DNA of 64,000 bases. It comes from an uncultured Flavipsychrobacter sp. (GTDB taxonomy: Bacteria; Bacteroidota; Bacteroidia; Chitinophagales; Chitinophagaceae). The stretch covers positions 135,785-199,784 of the forward strand of contig CAZPOT010000003.1 of NCBI GenBank assembly GCA_964588295.1, read 5' to 3'. The position numbers and the translations under genes were made by a program. Shown piece by piece: positions 3,504-61,908 of this stretch. How positions within the stretch are numbered: position 1 is the first letter of the stretch; the number at the start of each line of letters is the position of its first letter. The notes under the pieces were generated by a model, which was not told the DNA's origin, did no database searches, and was given only the letters and a program-made list of their open reading frames with translations.

Positions 3504-4895
3504 ATGAAAAAGCGGTTGGTCATCATTGCGAGTGCCTTCACTATCTCCTTCTTCGTTATGGGAGCGCTTTCCCTGTTTTCCATCGAACGGCTCAATAAGT
3601 ATATCTATTTCTCTCGCATGTCGGATAAGTCCGCTGCTGTTATTGAAGAAATATTTACAGCCGAAAAAGCACTACGTGATATTGATCGCTCAGAACGCGG
3701 CTACATGATCACCCGCGACACTATGTATCTGCGTTTCCTTAACGGTTCTTGCGACAGTTTGCGGGCCAGCATAAGTGAGCTTAAACAACAAACCGGCGAT
3801 AACCCGGAACTTTTACGCACTGTATCCTTATTAAGCGCAGAAGCTACTAATCGTATTACCGCATCAAAGGAGAATATAGCATTTGTAGATAGCTCTACAT
3901 CGTCGTCATTGTCCAAATATTATTACGACAGCCGGCAATTGATGCTAGATTGTTCTAAACTACTTAAAAAGATACATACATCAGAAAGCGCTATAAGGGC
4001 AGAACACATAAAAGGAGAAGCCGTTTACGAACTGCTCACTACGCGCACCATAAAATGGTTACTACTTGTATTTTGTATCATCACCCTGTTCCTGCTGGTA
4101 CTGCTGATAAAGGAACTGAGCGGCCGTATGAAATTTCAGGAGGAGTTGCAGGCAAGGGTTATAGATCTGCGTCGCTCTCATGAGGAGCTGCAGCAGATAG
4201 CCTATGTTGCCGCCCACGATCTGCAGGAACCCCTGAGGAAGATACAGGTGTTCAGCAATATGCTCTTATACCAGAAAAATGATGGCATGAGTAGTACCAT
4301 GCTGCAAAACCTGGAGCGCATCAACAATTCCGCCAATCGTATGCAATCGCTCATTACAGATCTCTCCGGCCTCACCAGTCTTACCAGGGTAGACGAGGAG
4401 CGCAAAGAGATAGACCTGAACAGGATGTTGCAGTATATAGTACTTGACATTGATGAAAAGGTGAGCAAACGGTCGGCTATTATTACTGTAAAATACCTGC
4501 CCTTTATTACCGGTTTCGAGAATCAGCTAAAGCTGCTGTTTAATAGCCTGCTGGATAACTCGCTTAAATTCTGCCGTCCGGATGTGCCGCCGCAAATATC
4601 TATCATCAGCGATGTGACGAACGGAGAAGAACTGAAAGATATTAACCCGAACCTTAAAAACAAGAAATTTAACCGTGTGGTTATTACCGATAACGGTATT
4701 GGCTTTGAACAACAGTTCATAGACAAGATGTTCCAGATATTCCAGCGGTTGCACCAACAGGAAGAGAACTACGAAGGTAAAGGTATAGGCCTGGCATTGT
4801 GCCAACGCGTAATGGCCAACCACGAAGGCTATATTGTTGCCGATGGGCACTCACAACAGGGAGCAGTATTCAAGTTGTATTTCCCTATTGCATGA
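3504..4895 (+). CDS. sensor histidine kinase (CHASE3-like periplasmic domain)
   Basis: two TM segments flanking a periplasmic region, coiled coil, H-box AAHDLQEPLRKI, HATPase N/G boxes (DNGIGF, GKGIGLALC). Confidence 0.8.
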   Translation: MKKRLVIIASAFTISFFVMGALSLFSIERLNKYIYFSRMSDKSAAVIEEIFTAEKALRDIDRSERGYMITRDTMYLRFLNGSCDSLRASISELKQQTGDNPELLRTVSLLSAEATNRITASKENIAFVDSSTSSSLSKYYYDSRQLMLDCSKLLKKIHTSESAIRAEHIKGEAVYELLTTRTIKWLLLVFCIITLFLLVLLIKELSGRMKFQEELQARVIDLRRSHEELQQIAYVAAHDLQEPLRKIQVFSNMLLYQKNDGMSSTMLQNLERINNSANRMQSLITDLSGLTSLTRVDEERKEIDLNRMLQYIVLDIDEKVSKRSAIITVKYLPFITGFENQLKLLFNSLLDNSLKFCRPDVPPQISIISDVTNGEELKDINPNLKNKKFNRVVITDNGIGFEQQFIDKMFQIFQRLHQQEENYEGKGIGLALCQRVMANHEGYIVADGHSQQGAVFKLYFPIA

Positions 4896-21514: not shown

Positions 21515-21619
21515 CAATTCCCTTACTTCTAATACGCAACAAAGCGCCGCTGTCGTGTTCCTTCACTGACAGACCACAAGCATACGCACTCATTTGAGGA
21601 AAAACTAACCATCAGCTTC

Positions 21620-21689
21620 GTCCTGTAAGACGGGTTATAATAGCGCGGGCGTTTCAACCCTGCGGCTTAAGCGGGCGTATTCATTTTCG
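21620..21689 (+). repeat. two-hairpin dispersed intergenic element (GTCCTG.AAGGAC / GGGTTTCAACCC family), copy A
   Basis: GTCCTGTAAGACGGGTTATAATAGCGCGGGCGTTTCAACCCTGCGGCTTAAGCGGGCGTATTCATTTTCG. Confidence 0.8.
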
Positions 21690-34213: not shown

Positions 34214-34280
34214 TCGGCAATAACATGTTCCGTAGGTGCGCTCCAACGAACTCACACAAATAATACAACCACACGATAAA

Positions 34281-34332
34281 GTCCTGAAAGGACGTTTTAT
34301 TACAGCGATGGGTTTCAACCCATCGGCTTAAG
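34281..34332 (+). repeat. two-hairpin dispersed intergenic element, copy B
   Basis: GTCCTGAAAGGACGTTTTATTACAGCGATGGGTTTCAACCCATCGGCTTAAG. Confidence 0.8.
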
Positions 34333-34435
34333 ACGCTCCACGTCATTGCGCCGTAGGTGCAAAAGCTTTGTAGAAAAGAAATTTAAATTGAAATTGCGCT
34401 CCGTAGGTGCGCTCCAATAACAACGCGGCTGAAGC

Positions 34436-35635
34436 TTAAGAACCTATCGCACCCCGCACAGCCCGCACCACCAGCAGCAGTAATAAGCCTCCACTTGCAC
34501 CCAGTGCCACCCATACGGGCATCCCCGGCACTGCATGCAGCACCAGCCCTTTGGCCTGCGCCATCGTCATAGCCACATACTGCAACGCCACTACAGCCAC
34601 AGCCCCCAGCAGCAATACAAAACCTATAAATGGCACAAACCGTCCCAGCATAAAACCACTCAATCTCCGCGGACTATACCCCAACTCTTTCAACAACACC
34701 AGCGACTGATGTGCACGTGCTATGGTCAGTTCTATGAACAGGATGAACACCAGCGCACCTATCCCCATTAGTAATACAGCCAGCACACCGGTAGCCGTTG
34801 TCACTACCTCTACTATCTCCCTTATCTTACTCCAGCGCAGGTTCTCCGTATTCGTGCTGTAATCCTTATCCTTCAGGTAATTGGTAAAATGCCTGTCCGA
34901 TGGATCTTTCACTTTCAATATCAGTTGCGATGGCTGCCCACCCGTCTTCTGCCCGGCAAACTTTTCATTGCCATAGTCAATAAACGCCTGCGGTGCCATT
35001 ACCGAATTGATCCTGTCCGAGAACCCTACCACGTGTGCAGAGTAGGTCTCTGCACTGGCCTCCGGCCCTATCTTTATCCGCAAGGCTATCATCTTTACCG
35101 ATGATTCCGACAGCTGCGGCAAGCCCTGGCTCGGCGCAAATACATAGTTATATAACCCCAGGAATTGTGTCGACATAATGATCGGCACATCTCGTCTGCC
35201 AGGCTTCCAGTCCCAGTCCGCGGGCTTGTTGTCCAGGAAGTTGTCAGGCACACTCTCCAGCGGCAGATCCGTCGACATTGCCAGTTGCCCGCCAAGTACA
35301 GCCCACACCGGGAATTTATTGGAAGAGATGATACCCACCTCCTGCACCTGCGGTGCCTGCTTCAGCCCTTCAATGTCACCGGCACTGAATAGTGTGGCAT
35401 CCTTTACCCCTACATTGGTATTCGTTACCCTCTTCCCTACTACCACGTAGGTGCTGCCTGCACCGTCCTGGTCATTCTTGCCATAAAGTAACTCATCAAA
35501 GTTCCACCATATCAGCACCGATGCCAGCAGCAGGAAGTTGCCTATAAACAACGCCGTAAGCGCCGCCCACAGCCTGCTGCGCCCTGTGCCGTACAGCAGC
35601 AATCGCTTCAATATCTGTTTCTGTCCGCTCTTCAT
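34436..35635 (-). CDS. ABC transporter permease, FtsX-like
   Basis: N-terminal TM, large extracytoplasmic domain, C-terminal 3-TM FtsX-type bundle. Confidence 0.75.
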   Translation of the reverse strand: MKSGQKQILKRLLLYGTGRSRLWAALTALFIGNFLLLASVLIWWNFDELLYGKNDQDGAGSTYVVVGKRVTNTNVGVKDATLFSAGDIEGLKQAPQVQEVGIISSNKFPVWAVLGGQLAMSTDLPLESVPDNFLDNKPADWDWKPGRRDVPIIMSTQFLGLYNYVFAPSQGLPQLSESSVKMIALRIKIGPEASAETYSAHVVGFSDRINSVMAPQAFIDYGNEKFAGQKTGGQPSQLILKVKDPSDRHFTNYLKDKDYSTNTENLRWSKIREIVEVVTTATGVLAVLLMGIGALVFILFIELTIARAHQSLVLLKELGYSPRRLSGFMLGRFVPFIGFVLLLGAVAVVALQYVAMTMAQAKGLVLHAVPGMPVWVALGASGGLLLLLVVRAVRGAIGS

Positions 35636-36279
35636 TACAGGTCTATCGTTTGGGTATACGGAAAGAAATTATTGTCATCCAGGTCCGCCAGCAGCATTGC
35701 TGCATTGCGTTGGTGTACCACCTCAGCTATCAGTTGCGCAGCCCTGCCTTTATTATCATTGTCCAGGTGGCTGAAGGGTTCATCCATCAGCAACCATTCA
35801 AAGGGTTGTAGCAGCGCCCGTATAATGGCTACCCTTTGTTGTTCACCATAAGATAGCGTTGCCCCGCGCGATGCGCTTTTATTGGCTATGCCCAGCCGCT
35901 GCATCCAGCCCTTCACCGTAGCCTCATCTACAGTATCGGTCAGCTGTCTTTTAACTTCCAGGTTCTCCCATACAGTAAGCTCGGGGAACAAGCGCATATC
36001 CTGGAAGATCACGCTTAGCTTACCGGTTCTCAATTCGGCAATACTATCAGCACCCATCTGCCGCATTTGTTGCTCGCCCCATGCTATACTGCCTTCGTAG
36101 TCGGTACGTATACCATATAACATATGCACCAGCGTGGTCTTACCTGTGCCCGATGGTGCTTTTACAAACACATACTCGTTACCCTGCAATACAAGCTCAT
36201 TAAGCCATATCCCAGACCTCCTGCCCTCCATCCGTTCCCGCAGGGGCACGGGCATTAAACCATTTACAGACAACTGCAT
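35635..36279 (-). CDS. ABC transporter ATP-binding protein
   Basis: Walker A APSGTGKTT, ABC signature LSYGEQQR, Walker B LLMDEP; 1-nt overlap with permease. Confidence 0.85.
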   Translation of the reverse strand: MQLSVNGLMPVPLRERMEGRRSGIWLNELVLQGNEYVFVKAPSGTGKTTLVHMLYGIRTDYEGSIAWGEQQMRQMGADSIAELRTGKLSVIFQDMRLFPELTVWENLEVKRQLTDTVDEATVKGWMQRLGIANKSASRGATLSYGEQQRVAIIRALLQPFEWLLMDEPFSHLDNDNKGRAAQLIAEVVHQRNAAMLLADLDDNNFFPYTQTIDL

Positions 36280-36395
36280 ACTAAAACAAATGTATAGCTA
36301 ACCTGGCAAAAACCGAGCCATATCCACAAAACAAAAACGGGATGCAAAATTGCATCCCGTCACTTTATACACATTTTTTACGATCACATTGAAAA

Positions 36396-36447
36396 GTCCT
36401 GAAAGGACGTACTATTATAGCGATGGGTTTCAACCCATCGGCTTAAA
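36396..36447 (+). repeat. two-hairpin dispersed intergenic element, copy C
   Basis: GTCCTGAAAGGACGTACTATTATAGCGATGGGTTTCAACCCATCGGCTTAAAAGG. Confidence 0.8.
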
Positions 36448-36456
36448 AGGCGGTTA

Positions 36457-44124: not shown

Positions 44125-44168
44125 AACCCTGACCAATCCCTACCACAAGCTCCCCCACGTCCTGTAAG

Positions 44169-44220
44169 GACGGGCTATAACAGCATCGGGTTTCAACCCG
44201 ATGGCTTAAGAACCAAAAAA
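44169..44220 (+). repeat. two-hairpin dispersed intergenic element, copy D
   Basis: GTCCTGTAAGGACGGGCTATAACAGCATCGGGTTTCAACCCGATGGCTTAAG. Confidence 0.8.
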
Positions 44221-44272
44221 GAAAATGGACCGCCATAAAGCAGTCCATTTCCGTATTGTAAGTAAGTATCTA

Positions 44273-45946: not shown

Positions 45947-46637
45947 AATCGAACAGCTCTTCGTTTTCTTTGGTAAAGGTCAGCAGGTTGGTGCGCACTT
46001 TAAGGCTCGCTATCCAGCAGCCCAGCAGTATCCAACCCATTACAGCGGGGTAAAATACCATGCGCATATCGCTGTCCAGGTCGTATTTGGCAAATGCCGG
46101 GTTGCCGCCGTTGCCGGGGTGCAGGCTGTCCGTCATGCGGGGCAGTATGAACAGCAGCGGTATCAGCATGGCAAAGGCAAATATGTTGTACACCGCGCTT
46201 ATCTTGGCGCGCTTGTCATCATCCTTTATGCCGCTGCGCAATATAGAATAGGCAAAGTAAATGAGCATGCATAGCGCCGTGCCCAGTTGTTTGGGATCGT
46301 TGCTCCACATCTGCCCCCAGGTATACTGCGCCCACTCCATACCCGTAAGCATGCCCAGTATGCTGAAGAAGATACCGGTATTGGTGAGCTGCACCGCGTA
46401 GATATCGTCTTTAAGATCGCCGGTGCGCAGGTATTTAACGGAATAGCCAAATGCCCCCGCAAACAGCACGATCATGGTAAACCACATAGGCACGTGAAAG
46501 TACAGGTTACGGATGGTCTCGTTCAGGATATCCAACCTGGGTACGCGCATCATCAGACCGCCAATAACCGTATAGGTTACCAACAGACCAGCCAATATTT
46601 TCCACCACCAGCTACGCAAGAGATAAAATTTTGGCAA
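45933..46637 (-). CDS. ccmC: cytochrome c-type biogenesis heme exporter protein C
   Basis: 6 TM, Trp-rich WWD-type region (AQYTWGQMWSNDP). Confidence 0.8.
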   Translation of the reverse strand: MPKFYLLRSWWWKILAGLLVTYTVIGGLMMRVPRLDILNETIRNLYFHVPMWFTMIVLFAGAFGYSVKYLRTGDLKDDIYAVQLTNTGIFFSILGMLTGMEWAQYTWGQMWSNDPKQLGTALCMLIYFAYSILRSGIKDDDKRAKISAVYNIFAFAMLIPLLFILPRMTDSLHPGNGGNPAFAKYDLDSDMRMVFYPAVMGWILLGCWIASLKVRTNLLTFTKENEELFDFEKH

Positions 46638-47105
46638 AAGTAGGGATTTTTACACACGGCGCACCATGATAATGAGCATTGTGGAGTACAGTGTTAAAAA
46701 CGTTGCGGATCAACCAACAAACGTGCTTGCCAGATGTTATTGGAAACCCGCAACCATTATCTAATAAGCAACCACTACGGAGTGTCACGCTGAGTAAACA
46801 ATTAGCTGCGCTCAAGAACTTTGCAACTGCCACATAATATCGCCACGACAGCCGCCGTTGCGTCTCCTGACCAACGGCCACGAGACGTATTCGTTTTCGG
46901 ATAGAAATAACATGGTCTTTGCGAGGAACGAAGCAATCTCGCATCGCGATGTACTCTTTTTGTATATGATATCGACGAGATGCACAATGTTTCATTGGCA
47001 GCCTGTTAAAGGGCGGCACGGACACAAGCGCTGTCATTGGCGAAGTACGCAGCTATCTTACAAGCGGGACATATTCGTTTTAGAATGCGCTGATCAACTG
47101 TACAA

Positions 47106-47176
47106 GCCCTGTAAGGGCGTATTATAACAGCGTCGGATTTCAATCCGGCGGCTTCAGCGGGCATATACGTTTTCGT
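47106..47176 (+). repeat. two-hairpin dispersed intergenic element, copy E (compensatory variant)
   Basis: GCCCTGTAAGGGC...GTCGGATTTCAATCCGGCGGCTTCAGCGGGCATATACGTTTTCG; both stems changed but pairing preserved. Confidence 0.8.
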
Positions 47177-49815: not shown

Positions 49816-49934
49816 ATACTTGTAACTACTGACTTAATTAAACAGGAACTAACCACAGTGCCGCTGGCCTGTCTTCAGACTGCCAGCCCACAAGCGGACG
49901 TATTCGTTTTCGATTAACAACAATTAGCTGTCTC

Positions 49935-50006
49935 GTCCTGAAAGGACGGGTTATAATAGCGCAGGCGTTTCAACCCTGCGGCTGCAGCGCACGTATTCGT
50001 TTTCGG
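49935..50006 (+). repeat. two-hairpin dispersed intergenic element, copy F
   Basis: GTCCTGAAAGGACGGGTTATAATAGCGCAGGCGTTTCAACCCTGCGGCTGCAGCGCACGTATTCGTTTTCG. Confidence 0.8.
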
Positions 50007-58346: not shown

Positions 58347-58766
58347 GTGGTATTTTGTACCACTATGGATAAGCCGATTATTAACGTTACCTGCGCTATA
58401 ATTCAGAATGAGGGAAAAGTATTTGCTGCACAACGTAGTGCTTCAATGCGTCTTCCCCTGAAATGGGAATTTCCAGGTGGTAAAATAGATGCAGGCGAAA
58501 CTGACGAGCAATGTATATTGCGAGAACTAAAGGAAGAGCTCGGAATAAACGGCGAAATCATCGAACGGCTGAATGCTTGCGCTTTTGAATACGAACATAA
58601 TATTGTTAATCTCATTCCTTTCATTGTTCGCCAAAAAGATGGAGTAATTGCTCTTACTGAACATGCACAATACATTTGGGCCGACATACCAACATTAAAA
58701 CAATTAGATTGGGCACCTGCAGATATCCCCATCCTTAACGATTATATTCGCCAATATGGAACTTAA
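58347..58766 (+). CDS. NUDIX (MutT-like) hydrolase
   Basis: Nudix box GGKIDAGETDEQCILRELKEELGI; about 135 aa; start may be ATG at 58365 (MDKPII...). Confidence 0.85.
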   Translation: MVFCTTMDKPIINVTCAIIQNEGKVFAAQRSASMRLPLKWEFPGGKIDAGETDEQCILRELKEELGINGEIIERLNACAFEYEHNIVNLIPFIVRQKDGVIALTEHAQYIWADIPTLKQLDWAPADIPILNDYIRQYGT

Positions 58767-61700
58767 ACTCGGACTCTATGAACAACTAATTAACCAACTA
58801 GTTGATGAACGTATCAAACTATTGGATACAGATACCTATTACATAAAAGAAACAGCATTAGATAAGGCTGAGGCATCTGAATACCTTAGTAGATACGTAG
58901 CAGATATAGTTAAACAAGCGCTTTCCCGGATCAAAGGCGAAGAAGTATTGAAAAATCAAATAGAATTAGCAAATTCGATCTTACAGTTGCTCAGCGAAAA
59001 AATATCTGCCGACGATTTTTCAAGTAATATTCTTGATACGCAAGGTCGAATATTAAATGCAATAGTATCGAAGGTAAATAGCGATCATGCAGATATTGCA
59101 GAACACATCCAGAAAATAACTCCCTATACTCGTTTTTCTCAAAGCGAATTATTTACAGGAGGTGCTACCAATGTCAGTATTACGCTAGAAAGCGAACTAA
59201 AAAAAGAAATACAGTCCGCGAATGAAATTTATTTTCTGGTATCATTTATAAAATTTGCAGGTATTCGCATTTTTTATAAGGAGTTGGAAGCATTTACGCA
59301 CAACGGTGGTAAGCTGAAGATAATTACCACTTCCTACATGGGTGCAACAGATCTAAAAGCAATTGAGCTGCTGAGTAAACTAGAGAATACTGAAATTAAA
59401 ATTTCCTACAACACGCAGGCCGAAAGACTACATGCCAAGGCATATCTATTTTTAAGAGATACTGGATTTCATACCGGATATATCGGTTCGTCAAATTTAT
59501 CCCGTTCTGCCGTTACCAACGGTATGGAGTGGAATATCAAAATAACAACAAGAGAGGTTGGGCATCTTATTGATAAGTTCAAAAAAACATTTGAAACCTA
59601 TTGGAAGGATGCTTCGTTCGAAATATTTGATTCAGCAAAAGACACAATCAAATTAAAAACTTCACTTGAAGCACAACGGGCCACGATAGCGCTGAACACT
59701 ACTTTCTTCGATATAACCCCTCACCACTATCAGAAAGAAATTTTAGAAAAACTAATTGCTGAAAGACAAATTCACAATAGATTCCGGAACCTTATTGTGG
59801 CTGCTACAGGAACTGGCAAAACAGTAATAGCTGCTTTCGACTTTCAACGATTCCTAACTGTAAATAAGTACGCGAGGCTGCTATTTGTGACACATAGAAA
59901 AGAAATATTGCTTCAAGCGTTGAGTACTTTTAGAGGCGTACTGAAGGATGCTAATTTTGGCGAATTATGGGTAGATGGCATAATGCCAACTAAGCTCGAT
60001 AAAGTCTTAGCATCTGTTCAAACACTCAGCAGTCAATTGTCGTCGAAAAATCTAACCTACGACTATTACGACTATATAGTAATTGATGAGGTACACCATA
60101 TAGCTGCTGCTAGCTATAGACCAATCCTCAACCAGTTTCAGCCATCTATTTTGCTTGGCCTTACTGCCACTCCAGAAAGAATGGATAATGAAAATATCCT
60201 TTCAGATTTTTGCAATGTAATTGCCGCAGAAATAAGGCTGCCTGAAGCGTTAAATCAGCAATTACTTTGCCCATTCCATTATTTTGGAATTTCGGATAGC
60301 GTTGACTTGTCTCATGTAAAGTGGGATAAAGGAAGATATCTTCAGTCAGAATTGGAGGTGCTCTATACAGGTAATAAGCAAAGGCTTGGAGAAATAATTA
60401 CCAACCTTGACAACTACTTGACGGACATCCACAATGTCCGCGCCCTTGGGTTCTGTGTTTCTCAGCAGCATGCGCGATATATGGCTGAAGGCTTTAATAG
60501 TGCAGGGTTGAGTGCCGCATACCTAACAAGCGAGAACAGTAACGATCGCGAGACAATTAGGCTTAATCTGAAAGAAAGAAAAATAAACTACCTTTTTGTG
60601 GTAGATATTTTTAACGAAGGTGTGGATATACCTGAGATTGACACTGTTCTTTTTCTGCGTCCTACCGAAAGCTTAACTATATTTTTACAACAGTTGGGAA
60701 GAGGTTTGAGAAAGGCTAATGGAAAAGAATGCCTTACTGTTCTAGATTTCGTGGGTAATGCTAGAATGGAATACGATTTCGAAAAGAAATTCAGAGCTTT
60801 AATAGGCAGAACAATTTCGAGTACACAAAAAGAAATTGAGGATGACTTTCCGCATTTACCTTTAAATTGTTCCATAATACTGGAACGAAAGGCAAAGGAA
60901 TATATTCTACTTAATATCAAACGTGCTACATCCCTCGGTAAGCGGCAGCTGATTGATAAAATAAGAAGCTACCATTACGATATAGACCTGCCGCTTACAT
61001 TAAAGAATTTTATTGAACTATATAATCTTTCTTTACTGCAGATATATAAAGGTGGCAAATTCTGCTTTACCTCTTTGAAGAGGGAGGCAGGGCTATTAGT
61101 TAACAGTACAACAGTAAATGAGGCTGAAATAAGCCGGGCTATTTCAAAAAAGTGGTTGACTTGTAGTTCTTACAGTTATCTAACTTTTATCCTCAACGCT
61201 GCAAAACAAAATTTTAAACTCGACTTTGCCAACTTAACAGAGAATGAAAAGCTTATCTGTCAAATGCTTTACTATGATATTTGGCAAAATGCAAATGAGT
61301 TCTCTACTATAGAAGCGAGTTTTGAGGCAATAGGTAGCAATGAGCATCTGACAGATGAGATAATTGATGTTATTGAACTAATCATTGATAAAATTGACTT
61401 TGTTGAAAAGGACATTGATCTTGGCTATGCAATGCCTCTAAAAGTGCACAGTAGATATACCAAGGATCAAATATGTGCGGCATTTGAAGAAAGTACTATA
61501 AATAAAAAGTCATCGTCACGAGAAGGGGTGATCCTAATTGCAAAGAAAAATACGGAGCTTCTGTTCATCACTTTACAAAAAAGCGAAAAAGAGTATTCTC
61601 CTACTACGCTTTATGATGACTATGCCATTAACGAAACACTATTTCACTGGCAGTCACAAAATTCGGCACGGGCAGACTCAGGTAAAGGACTTACTTACAT

Positions 61701-61908
61701 CGAGCAGCACAAAACCGGTAAAAAAATATTGCTATTCGTTAGAGAAGCTAACGAGGATGAAAATAACAATACCATGGGTTATGTATTTCTGGGTGAAGCA
61801 AAATATGTAGATCATTATGGTGAAAAACCAATGAGTATCACTTGGGTTTTGAATGAGCCGATACCAGAGTATATGTGGAAGAGTTCCGCAAAAATGGCTA
61901 CGGGTTAA
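58756..61908 (+). CDS. PLD-family nuclease / SF2 DEAD-DEAH helicase / DUF3427 fusion protein (1050 aa)
   Basis: HKD motif LHAKAYLF...GSSNLSRSA (PLD/NgoFVII-like) at about aa 200-260; helicase motif I AATGTGKT, II VIDEVHH, III LTATPER, VI QQLGRGLR; C-terminal about 250 aa DUF3427-like; 11 nt overlap with NUDIX gene. Confidence 0.85.
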   Translation: MELKLGLYEQLINQLVDERIKLLDTDTYYIKETALDKAEASEYLSRYVADIVKQALSRIKGEEVLKNQIELANSILQLLSEKISADDFSSNILDTQGRILNAIVSKVNSDHADIAEHIQKITPYTRFSQSELFTGGATNVSITLESELKKEIQSANEIYFLVSFIKFAGIRIFYKELEAFTHNGGKLKIITTSYMGATDLKAIELLSKLENTEIKISYNTQAERLHAKAYLFLRDTGFHTGYIGSSNLSRSAVTNGMEWNIKITTREVGHLIDKFKKTFETYWKDASFEIFDSAKDTIKLKTSLEAQRATIALNTTFFDITPHHYQKEILEKLIAERQIHNRFRNLIVAATGTGKTVIAAFDFQRFLTVNKYARLLFVTHRKEILLQALSTFRGVLKDANFGELWVDGIMPTKLDKVLASVQTLSSQLSSKNLTYDYYDYIVIDEVHHIAAASYRPILNQFQPSILLGLTATPERMDNENILSDFCNVIAAEIRLPEALNQQLLCPFHYFGISDSVDLSHVKWDKGRYLQSELEVLYTGNKQRLGEIITNLDNYLTDIHNVRALGFCVSQQHARYMAEGFNSAGLSAAYLTSENSNDRETIRLNLKERKINYLFVVDIFNEGVDIPEIDTVLFLRPTESLTIFLQQLGRGLRKANGKECLTVLDFVGNARMEYDFEKKFRALIGRTISSTQKEIEDDFPHLPLNCSIILERKAKEYILLNIKRATSLGKRQLIDKIRSYHYDIDLPLTLKNFIELYNLSLLQIYKGGKFCFTSLKREAGLLVNSTTVNEAEISRAISKKWLTCSSYSYLTFILNAAKQNFKLDFANLTENEKLICQMLYYDIWQNANEFSTIEASFEAIGSNEHLTDEIIDVIELIIDKIDFVEKDIDLGYAMPLKVHSRYTKDQICAAFEESTINKKSSSREGVILIAKKNTELLFITLQKSEKEYSPTTLYDDYAINETLFHWQSQNSARADSGKGLTYIEQHKTGKKILLFVREANEDENNNTMGYVFLGEAKYVDHYGEKPMSITWVLNEPIPEYMWKSSAKMATG

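Follow-up and report, generated by a model that had tools for sequence, protein, structure and literature searches.

Acido-Lenti-1 elements in a Flavipsychrobacter chromosome as probable REP-like DNA repeats of an IS200-like tyrosine transposase

The motif Acido-Lenti-1 appears in Rfam as RF01687 (type: Gene; small RNA, or sRNA, of unknown function) and is described there from Acidobacteria and Lentisphaerae only. Its original description counted 89 instances and noted an occasional proximity to group II introns (Weinberg et al. 2010, PMC2864571), and a preprint (bioRxiv 10.64898/2026.02.09.704811) lists Acido-Lenti-1 annotations in Tannerella, with the speculation that they regulate nearby virulence genes. 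Among the Y1 transposases, the TnpA-Y1 genes of subclass 1.2 have been described as low-copy, not insertion sequence (IS)-like and without associated repetitive extragenic palindromes (REPs) or terminal structures, and the genes of class 3 as flanked by high-copy ‘atypical secondary structures’ (Quentin et al. 2018, PMC6006769). For REPs, placement at the 3’ ends of genes and roles for the host have been described (PMC3733652). Here, we analyze six copies (A to F) of a two-hairpin element in a stretch of 64,000 nucleotides from an uncultured Flavipsychrobacter sp. (contig CAZPOT010000003.1, positions 135,785 to 199,784; hereafter the window). These elements match Acido-Lenti-1 and are most likely dispersed non-autonomous REP/REPIN-like DNA repeats, with an HUH/Y1 IS200-like transposase of subclass 1.2 as their cognate enzyme.

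The motif, its covariation and its distribution

A covariance model, R1, was built from 63 copies of the window and other genomes, and the 64 kb were searched with it with filters off. Exactly six matches are returned, all on the + strand and with 46–67 bits, while the next best match has 8 bits. They comprise copies A (21618–21667), B (34279–34328), C (36394–36443), D (44157–44206), E (47104–47153) and F (49933–49983). The outcome of this search, direct reading of the element at all six sites and pattern searches, in which the matches in the window far exceed those in shuffled sequence, agree on these sites, and the start given before for copy D has to be shifted, from 44169 to 44159. RF01687 matches copies C, B, D and E on the - strand with 46.8, 44.6, 41.2 and 38.8 bits, respectively, above its gathering score of 37 bits. 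Copy F stays just under it (36.3 bits) and copy A is not reported. Judged by these matches, the six elements can be assigned to the Acido-Lenti-1 motif.

Each unit consists of hairpin 1, G(T/C)CC-TG(A/T)AA-GG(A/G)C, followed by a G, an A/T-rich linker of around 11 nt ending in AGC, and hairpin 2, which has a variable stem of 6–8 bp and a TTTCAA loop and after which GGCTTAAG comes next. In many lineages, a second hairpin 1 in the same orientation comes around 25 nt after hairpin 2, so that three hairpins follow one another. The window harbors a sub-variant. Its type-A unit is composed of a ACAACTAACTGT-like linker, hairpin 1, hairpin 2, GGCTTMAGCGG and a tail, and it is preceded by a type-B unit made up of AGCGCCG, a hairpin with a loop of 11–13 nt, CCACAAGCGG and a tail. 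Copies A, E and F are part of these larger type-B/type-A composites, in which tails recur at intervals of 92–93 bp; copies B, C and D are minimal and tail-less. The tail of 14 nt, CGTATTCGTTTTCG, is present at 21676, 46886, 47070, 47162, 49899 and 49992. It is over-represented, with 11 matches at up to three mismatches versus four expected (none of 100 shuffles reaches 11), and it is indeed also found apart from the copies, as predicted before (46886, 47070 and 49899). Among 189 loci, only the window and the metagenome-assembled genome (MAG) CANGNA01 contain it.

Both stems are maintained by compensatory changes. In the 63 copies, which come from many phyla, all seven pairs of hairpin 2 vary on both sides and 99% of the cells are paired, a percentage that is inflated by preselection of the copies for at least five consecutive hairpin-2 pairs, whereas the diversity of pair types is not. 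In hairpin 1, the pair that varies is formed by C-G in 43 copies, by U-A in 18 and by U-G in two, and it is never unpaired. The covariation score amounts to 0.54 compared to 0.15 in shuffles (0 of 500 reach 0.54), and slid registers give 0.11 at most. The earlier observation of covarying stems is thereby confirmed, and its interpretation as selection on RNA or DNA secondary structure was correct.

One genome per species was searched with a pattern restricted to the conserved bases of the loops and the linker. Among the matches listed, it occurs in at least 108 loci (8 kb each) in at least eight phyla, the groups including Bacteroidota, Acidobacteriota, Planctomycetota, Verrucomicrobiota, Chloroflexota, Desulfobacterota, Moduliflexus/Vecturithrix and others. 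Around a quarter of the matches to this pattern are due to chance, lying inside genes and without the hairpin-2 stem. With R1, 224 matches are found in 100 loci. The units of Acidobacteriota often form inverted doublets 90–160 bp apart, and some genomes carry arrays in the same orientation at a spacing of 200–950 bp.

A transposase gene bracketed by the motif

In one of the scanned loci (L059), a unit is directly followed by an open reading frame (ORF) of the Pfam family Y1_Tnp (IS200-like), with inverted copies on the far side. A phmmer search of the 108 listed loci yields Y1_Tnp homologues in four (L059, L045, L025 and L090, from four genomes), all of which are adjacent to the motif. The same association is seen in reverse. 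When 80 metagenomic loci were chosen only for encoding the protein of 150 amino acids (aa) and then searched with R1, 86 out of 102 matches were located within 250 bp of the transposase gene (tnpA), a zone that accounts for 12% of the bases. Upstream of the gene, 36 matches are on the + strand and six on the - strand; downstream, 38 are on the - strand and six on the + strand. The modal gap between motif and gene is around 55 bp upstream and around 50 bp downstream. RF01687 itself, at its gathering score, matches the flanks in nine out of 14 loci (L134, L143, L155, L202, L025, L141, L176, L120 and L059). In relatives, inverted units thus bracket the gene at a fixed distance with hairpin 1 outermost. 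For instance, an ENA contig of a close relative (L202) carries an intact tnpA of 150 aa between inverted three-hairpin units, and the type strain of F. stenotrophus shows the same layout. Motif units also occur without the gene.

The encoded protein carries an HUH motif, (D/N)HVH, followed by WQ, Y(I/V)xxQxxHH and a conserved C-terminal segment. It matches Pfam Y1_Tnp (E 3.9e-25) and passes the NCBIfam profile NF033573 with 65–73 bits versus a cut-off of 55, by which it is named an IS200/IS605 family transposase. The nearest solved structures are TnpAs of the IS200 family (2fyx and 2xm3, the latter of ISDra2). The family counts more than 5000 proteins at E < 1e-30. The best 120 of these, whose length is exactly 150 aa in almost every case, share 65–75% identity across Bacteroidota. 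Many members are annotated as ‘RayT’ by JGI. By its motif signature alone, rather than by the profiles of Quentin et al., the protein would belong to TnpA-Y1 subclass 1.2. As a side note, tnpA of F. stenotrophus RB1R16 has an in-frame TGA (L025 664–666, NZ_PPSL01000001.1) where L202 has TGC (Cys) at around 1625–1627. The L202 protein (P0241) is 95% identical to the RB1R16 product, and the RB1R16 gene is probably inactivated.

A link between Acido-Lenti-1 and a transposase was not found in the literature searched, including works that mention the motif. The link therefore appears to be new, while the kind of system is already known. Going one step further, we lean, by a modest degree, towards viewing Acido-Lenti-1 not as an RNA gene but as the missing repeat of this widespread subclass 1.2 enzyme. 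Its units would be mini-IS-like and the gene would lie in a REPtron-like inverted bracket, making the system an intermediate between IS200/IS605 and REP–RAYT (REP-associated tyrosine transposase) systems in at least eight phyla. In the lineage of the window, the direct tails 92 bp apart would then replace the second hairpin 1.

The copies in the window and their counterparts in relatives

The window is ordinary chromosome with housekeeping genes (pdxH, a two-component system, kup, yjbR, an ABC transporter, metK, glmS, panC, tdk, gdh, a cytochrome c assembly gene and moaA). The six copies are spread over 28 kb of it. All six are intergenic and next to the 3’ end of one gene or more. Convergent genes flank three of them, and divergent genes flank none. 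They share the C-rich strand, as the GC skew of the + strand is negative over nearly the whole window. Their orientation relative to transcription varies, with copy A along + strand genes and copies C and E opposite to - strand genes.

The core of copy A (21618–21667, + strand; R1 46.3 bits) is positioned between pdxH (+) and a histidine kinase gene (+). The composite around it, delimited by alignments and the tail match, spans 21540–21689 (+) and consists of a type-B unit (AGCGCCG, a hairpin with a loop of 11–13 nt, CCACAAGC and a degenerate tail) and a type-A unit (linker, hairpin 1, hairpin 2, GGCTTAAGCGG and the tail at 21676–21689). Hairpin 1 of copy A has a deletion of 1 nt (GTCCTGTAAG-AC) and is followed by the linker, AGC and a bulged hairpin 2; the bulged C of the latter is shared with copy F. 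Its fold is no better than that of shuffled sequences (z = +0.56). Copy A is a decaying copy. Copy B, which comprises the core and GGCTTAAG without a tail (34279–34332, +; R1 66.4 bits), is situated between the convergent yjbR (+) and a gene of 399 aa (-). Copy C, the core plus GGCTTAAA (36394–36447, +; R1 67.1 bits), lies between the stop codon of metK (36457, - strand) and the metK terminator hairpin (around 36340–36365). Copy D, the core plus GGCTTAAG (44157–44211, +; R1 60.9 bits), has the convergent genes tdk (+) and gdh (-) on either side and is next to the terminator hairpin of gdh (around 44222–44250).

Copy E (R1 61.5 bits) terminates an array at 46845–47176 (+), which is recognized by its tails and by alignment, contains around 3.5 units with a period of 92 bp and is located downstream of moaA (-). 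The array begins with a type-B unit (46845–46899), continues with a degenerate unit and a mixed unit (around 46991–47083) that has one hairpin-1-like and one type-B-like part, and ends in the type-A copy E. Finally, the composite around copy F (49857–50006, +) is made up of a type-B unit (49857–49913, with its tail at 49899–49912) and the type-A copy F, whose core (49933–49983; R1 59.5 bits) is followed by a tail at 49992–50005. It is flanked by the convergent genes of an Fe-S protein (+) and of a DUF695/RraB protein (-).

In the type-A units, the linker before hairpin 1 can pair with GGCTTMAGCG after hairpin 2, which would close a three-way junction. The closing pairs are GCTT/AAGC in copy A (21614–21617 with 21670–21673), CGCTGA/TCAGCG in copy E (47088–47093 with 47155–47160) and GCTG/CAGC in copy F (49926–49929 with 49985–49988). 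They differ in sequence between the copies, and three copies are too few for covariation.

Some further features lie close to the copies. An exact direct repeat of 15 nt, CCGTAGGTGCGCTCC, occurs at 34230–34244 and 34401–34415, on either side of copy B, with a shorter third copy, CCGTAGGTGC, between them at 34350–34362. It has only two exact copies in the window and, by count alone, remains at chance level (13 of 100 shuffles reach three matches at up to three mismatches). It may represent a further small repeat, or else a duplication tied to insertion of the element. Near copy C, Rfam sroE gives a weak match at 36284–36368 (- strand) with 29 bits versus a gathering score of 51, a chance resemblance of the intrinsic terminator hairpin of metK and its surroundings. 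An ORF of 141 aa at 46612–47037 (- strand) overlaps the repeat array upstream of copy E and has no protein family match; it is probably an open frame through repeat DNA and not a gene. Elsewhere in the window, a helicase-like ORF of 1050 aa (58756–61908, +) resembles, in part, the R subunits of type I restriction systems and RadD, every match being far under the family cut-offs.

Occupancy of the sites varies between relatives. The tdk protein of the window has 91% identity to that of Flavipsychrobacter stenotrophus, 99% to that of MAG CANGNA01 (Chitinophagaceae) and 100% to that of a JGI metagenome contig. By these values, the host is a Flavipsychrobacter-like bacterium of the Chitinophagaceae; Tannerella, to which the annotations in the preprint had pointed, was rejected as the host given the 91% identity of tdk to F. 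stenotrophus. At the site of copy D, the tdk–gdh spacer of F. stenotrophus measures 90 bp and is element-free. The site is also element-free in MAG CANGTA01, which shares the gdh terminator, and in the JGI relative it contains two copies at a distance of 148 bp from each other, together with another three-hairpin unit. This divergent unit, composed of GGTCTGAAAGACC, AATAGCCCGG..CCGGGG and GCTCTGAAAGAGC, is found at 4730–4830 of the JGI contig (L204), an indication that a single genome carries two sub-variants of the family side by side. At the 3’ end of metK, the element of copy C is absent from four related contigs (L197–L200). The orthologous site (window 36370–36456) is taken there, between the metK stop codon and the terminator, both of them conserved, by a filler of around 100 nt rich in CGCAAAG / GGCCGCAAAG (2299–2400 in L197 and the same site in L198–L200), which is a different small repeat. 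At the site of copy B, two tandem copies occur in the JGI relative (L197) versus one in the window. Because occupancy differs between relatives in this way, we infer that the elements are, or have been, mobile. It may be added that the ABC-transporter ATPase (window 35635–36279) is only 85% identical to its counterpart in the JGI relative (L197 2501–3145), though tdk is 100% identical. The segment from copy B to copy C thus appears to have diverged far more than the sequence around it, possibly by recombination or replacement bounded by repeats.

The placement of the copies raises the question of a function for the host. Like some REP/BIMEs of E. coli, they could stabilize mRNA 3’ ends, block read-through where genes converge, or bind nucleoid or topology proteins, and such a role would then maintain them however they had spread. 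This explanation draws support from the location of the six copies, which all border the 3’ end of a gene, with convergent genes around three and no copy in a divergent promoter region, and PMC3733652 reports equal placement and such roles for REPs. In addition, the cognate protein is strongly conserved (exactly 150 aa in nearly all cases, 65–75% identity across Bacteroidota), which suggests domestication. Nonetheless, the occupation of a given site is not kept even between close strains, copy A is decaying, and proper terminators beside copies C and D imply that the element is not itself a terminator. Moreover, a host function would only add a role and does not compete with an origin as a mobile repeat. 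As the primary explanation we regard it as unlikely, although secondary uses of the repeats by the host are conceivable.

Alternative readings and comparison with known systems

The preferred reading, a family of REP-like DNA repeats, entails a mechanism borrowed from IS608 and ISDra2 TnpA and from TnpA-REP of E. coli. By analogy, TnpA would recognize the hairpins of a unit in single-stranded DNA, e.g., at the replication fork, and cleave beside them, such that units could be copied, excised or rearranged. We propose that the stems covary because the hairpin shape and the bases of the loop and foot are recognized, and not the sequence of the stem. The cognate gene of this genome would be located outside the 64 kb window, and units would likely be transcribed passively into 3’ untranslated regions (UTRs), as for copy C within the metK 3’ UTR. 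Of the options named in the original prediction, the REP/BIME-like element is the one favored by the data: in relatives, inverted copies flank a Y1 gene, and the copies lie between genes, form clusters and change in number from strain to strain.

Several observations weigh against this reading. No Y1 transposase gene was found in the 64 kb window. A correctly oriented flank is detected in only 41 of the 80 tnpA loci (25 on both sides) at E ≤ 0.01 and with a model trained on a narrow pattern, and the tail-bearing sub-variant lacking a second hairpin 1 was not found flanking any tnpA examined. The protein fails the NCBIfam profile for REP-associated tyrosine transposases (NF047646; at most 28 bits versus a cut-off of 80). 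A clean empty-site junction is not found at the sites of copies C and D, where the relatives have filler or rearranged synteny. Finally, the orientation of copies relative to local GC skew at 64 loci (37 versus 27, p = 0.26) has the same direction as in the window but is not significant.

A small structured RNA family, be it a trans-acting sRNA or a cis element, transcribed from the - strand of the window and with the hairpins as its functional fold, would be in line with the four copies above the RF01687 gathering score on that strand, with the strong covariation in both stems and with the location of copy C in the metK 3’ UTR on the - strand, between stop codon and terminator. DNA hairpins explain the covariation equally well, however, and the pairing has little of a typical RNA helix. 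In copies chosen only by their loops and at least five Watson–Crick pairs, 671 of 693 hairpin-2 pairs (97%) are Watson–Crick, nine are G.T, six A.C and seven other. Wobble pairs are thus nearly absent and show no asymmetry between the strands (nine G.T versus six A.C), a pattern that fits hairpins in DNA, or recent copying, better than it fits an RNA from one strand. For assigning a strand, nine versus six is uninformative. Both DNA strands of copy C fold into two hairpins with similar energies (-12.2 and -11.7 kcal/mol, z around -4.5). Furthermore, the orientation to flanking genes is inconstant and, on direct reading, no promoter or terminator is conserved with the unit at the six copies of the window. 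Inverted doublets, tandem arrays, the bracketing of a transposase gene and a copy number that differs at the same site between strains are likewise at odds with an RNA gene. Hence, from the original proposal of a non-coding RNA (ncRNA) family, the match to an RNA label remains, whereas wobble asymmetry, a fixed orientation and a conserved promoter or terminator are missing. We consider this explanation improbable, marginally more so than a host function, and the sRNA label in Rfam most likely misreads hairpins that are conserved at the DNA level. A resemblance of CUGAAAG to a tRNA anticodon loop was also considered, and ARAGORN finds no tRNA.

The terminator-associated element of the original prediction finds no support. 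None of the six copies is followed by a T-run, as GGCTTAAG follows hairpin 2, and on the - strand a T-run does not consistently accompany hairpin 1 either, so that the combination of a G+C-rich hairpin and an immediate T-run that marks an intrinsic terminator is absent. The real terminator hairpins beside copies C and D are separate from the element.

Recombination sites of another system, i.e., integron attC sites, targets of group II introns or ends of a PATE (a miniature IS200/IS605 derivative) bounded by the tails, are very improbable: group II introns close to Acido-Lenti-1 in Lentisphaerae (Weinberg et al. 2010, PMC2864571), the same-orientation arrays, a protein closer to IS200 TnpA than to the RAYT of E. 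coli, a second direct hairpin 1 that in many lineages resembles left and right ends of a mini-IS, and window units bounded by direct tails 92–93 bp apart are offset by the lack of an integrase or reverse-transcriptase gene among the window ORFs scanned, by two separate hairpins instead of the one extended, imperfect hairpin of attC, in which R and L boxes pair, and by a gene bracketed by inverted units (36:6 and 38:6), which is the layout of a REPtron and not of an IS. The PATE-like version is best taken as a variant of the REP-like reading and not as a true rival. An integron cassette array in particular, as suggested by the same-orientation arrays, was rejected given two independent hairpins joined by a linker of 12 nt and no integrase.

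If the elements are REP-type DNA repeats, Acido-Lenti-1 annotations as ncRNA (in pipelines including that of NCBI) and the conclusions on virulence regulation drawn from them need revision. The link would also provide subclass 1.2, a large, conserved and uncharacterized HUH group, with a concrete DNA substrate to test, and it would add a multi-hairpin variant from multiple phyla to the picture of REPs and RAYTs, with a bearing on the domestication of IS200-like transposases. The elements of the window would then be ordinary intergenic repeat DNA that marks sites of rearrangement at the strain level.

Compared to the known systems, the elements have most in common with REP/BIME/REPIN–RAYT systems (Nunvar 2010, PMC2817692; Bertels & Rainey 2011, PMC3116915; Ton-Hoang 2012, PMC3333891). 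In both cases, short extragenic palindromic repeats are numerous and clustered, at times form inverted doublets, sit at gene 3’ ends and have lineage-specific variants, and a small HUH/Y1 gene is bracketed by inverted copies, here as seen in relatives and metagenomes. They differ in having two different hairpins per unit (three in many lineages) instead of one, and in lacking a strict 5’ GTAG foot. Instead, AG and then C are conserved for at least 90% before hairpin 2, and the two bases preceding AGC vary across lineages, the resulting feet including ATAG, ACAG, GTAG, TTAG and CCAG. The protein is also IS200-like of subclass 1.2 (Y..[NTD]Q..HH) and not a class-2 RAYT (Y..NP). The CGTC-tagged REPs of PMC3733652 were set aside as a match: hairpin 1 does start with CGTC on the - strand, but those REPs have stems of 8–9 bp with A/T first pairs and are transposase-free.

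With IS200/IS605 elements and PATEs, the system shares the closest protein structures, a score above the NF033573 cut-off and, by analogy, a reliance on subterminal hairpins as single-stranded DNA; the location of all six window copies on one strand is a further likeness. In an IS, however, a left and a right end, which are direct and asymmetric, enclose the gene, whereas here inverted copies of one unit surround it, and the short units far outnumber the gene. The TIRtrons and TIRYTs of Di Nocera et al. (2013, PMC3733652) likewise combine a tyrosine transposase with inverted, partly self-complementary dispersed repeats, including in Acidobacteria. Yet the acidobacterial TIRYTs (e.g., aba 1552) carry the class-2 Y..NP motif and thus belong to a different protein group, for which reason they were rejected as the cognate enzyme.

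RF01687 has the same build, in which a linker of 12 nt joins an 8-bp to a 5-bp hairpin, and tandem occurrence is already visible in its Rfam seed alignment. There, the motif is an sRNA on the opposite strand; here, it is found in Chitinophagaceae, extends to at least eight phyla and is linked to a Y1 transposase. The protein, for its part, agrees with subclass 1.2 of Quentin et al. in DH[VI]H / WQ / YIxNQxEHH, a length of around 150 aa and a conserved C-terminal domain. That subclass was reported as repeat-free, while the members considered here are flanked by the motif, a layout comparable to that of class 3 with its flanking high-copy structures.

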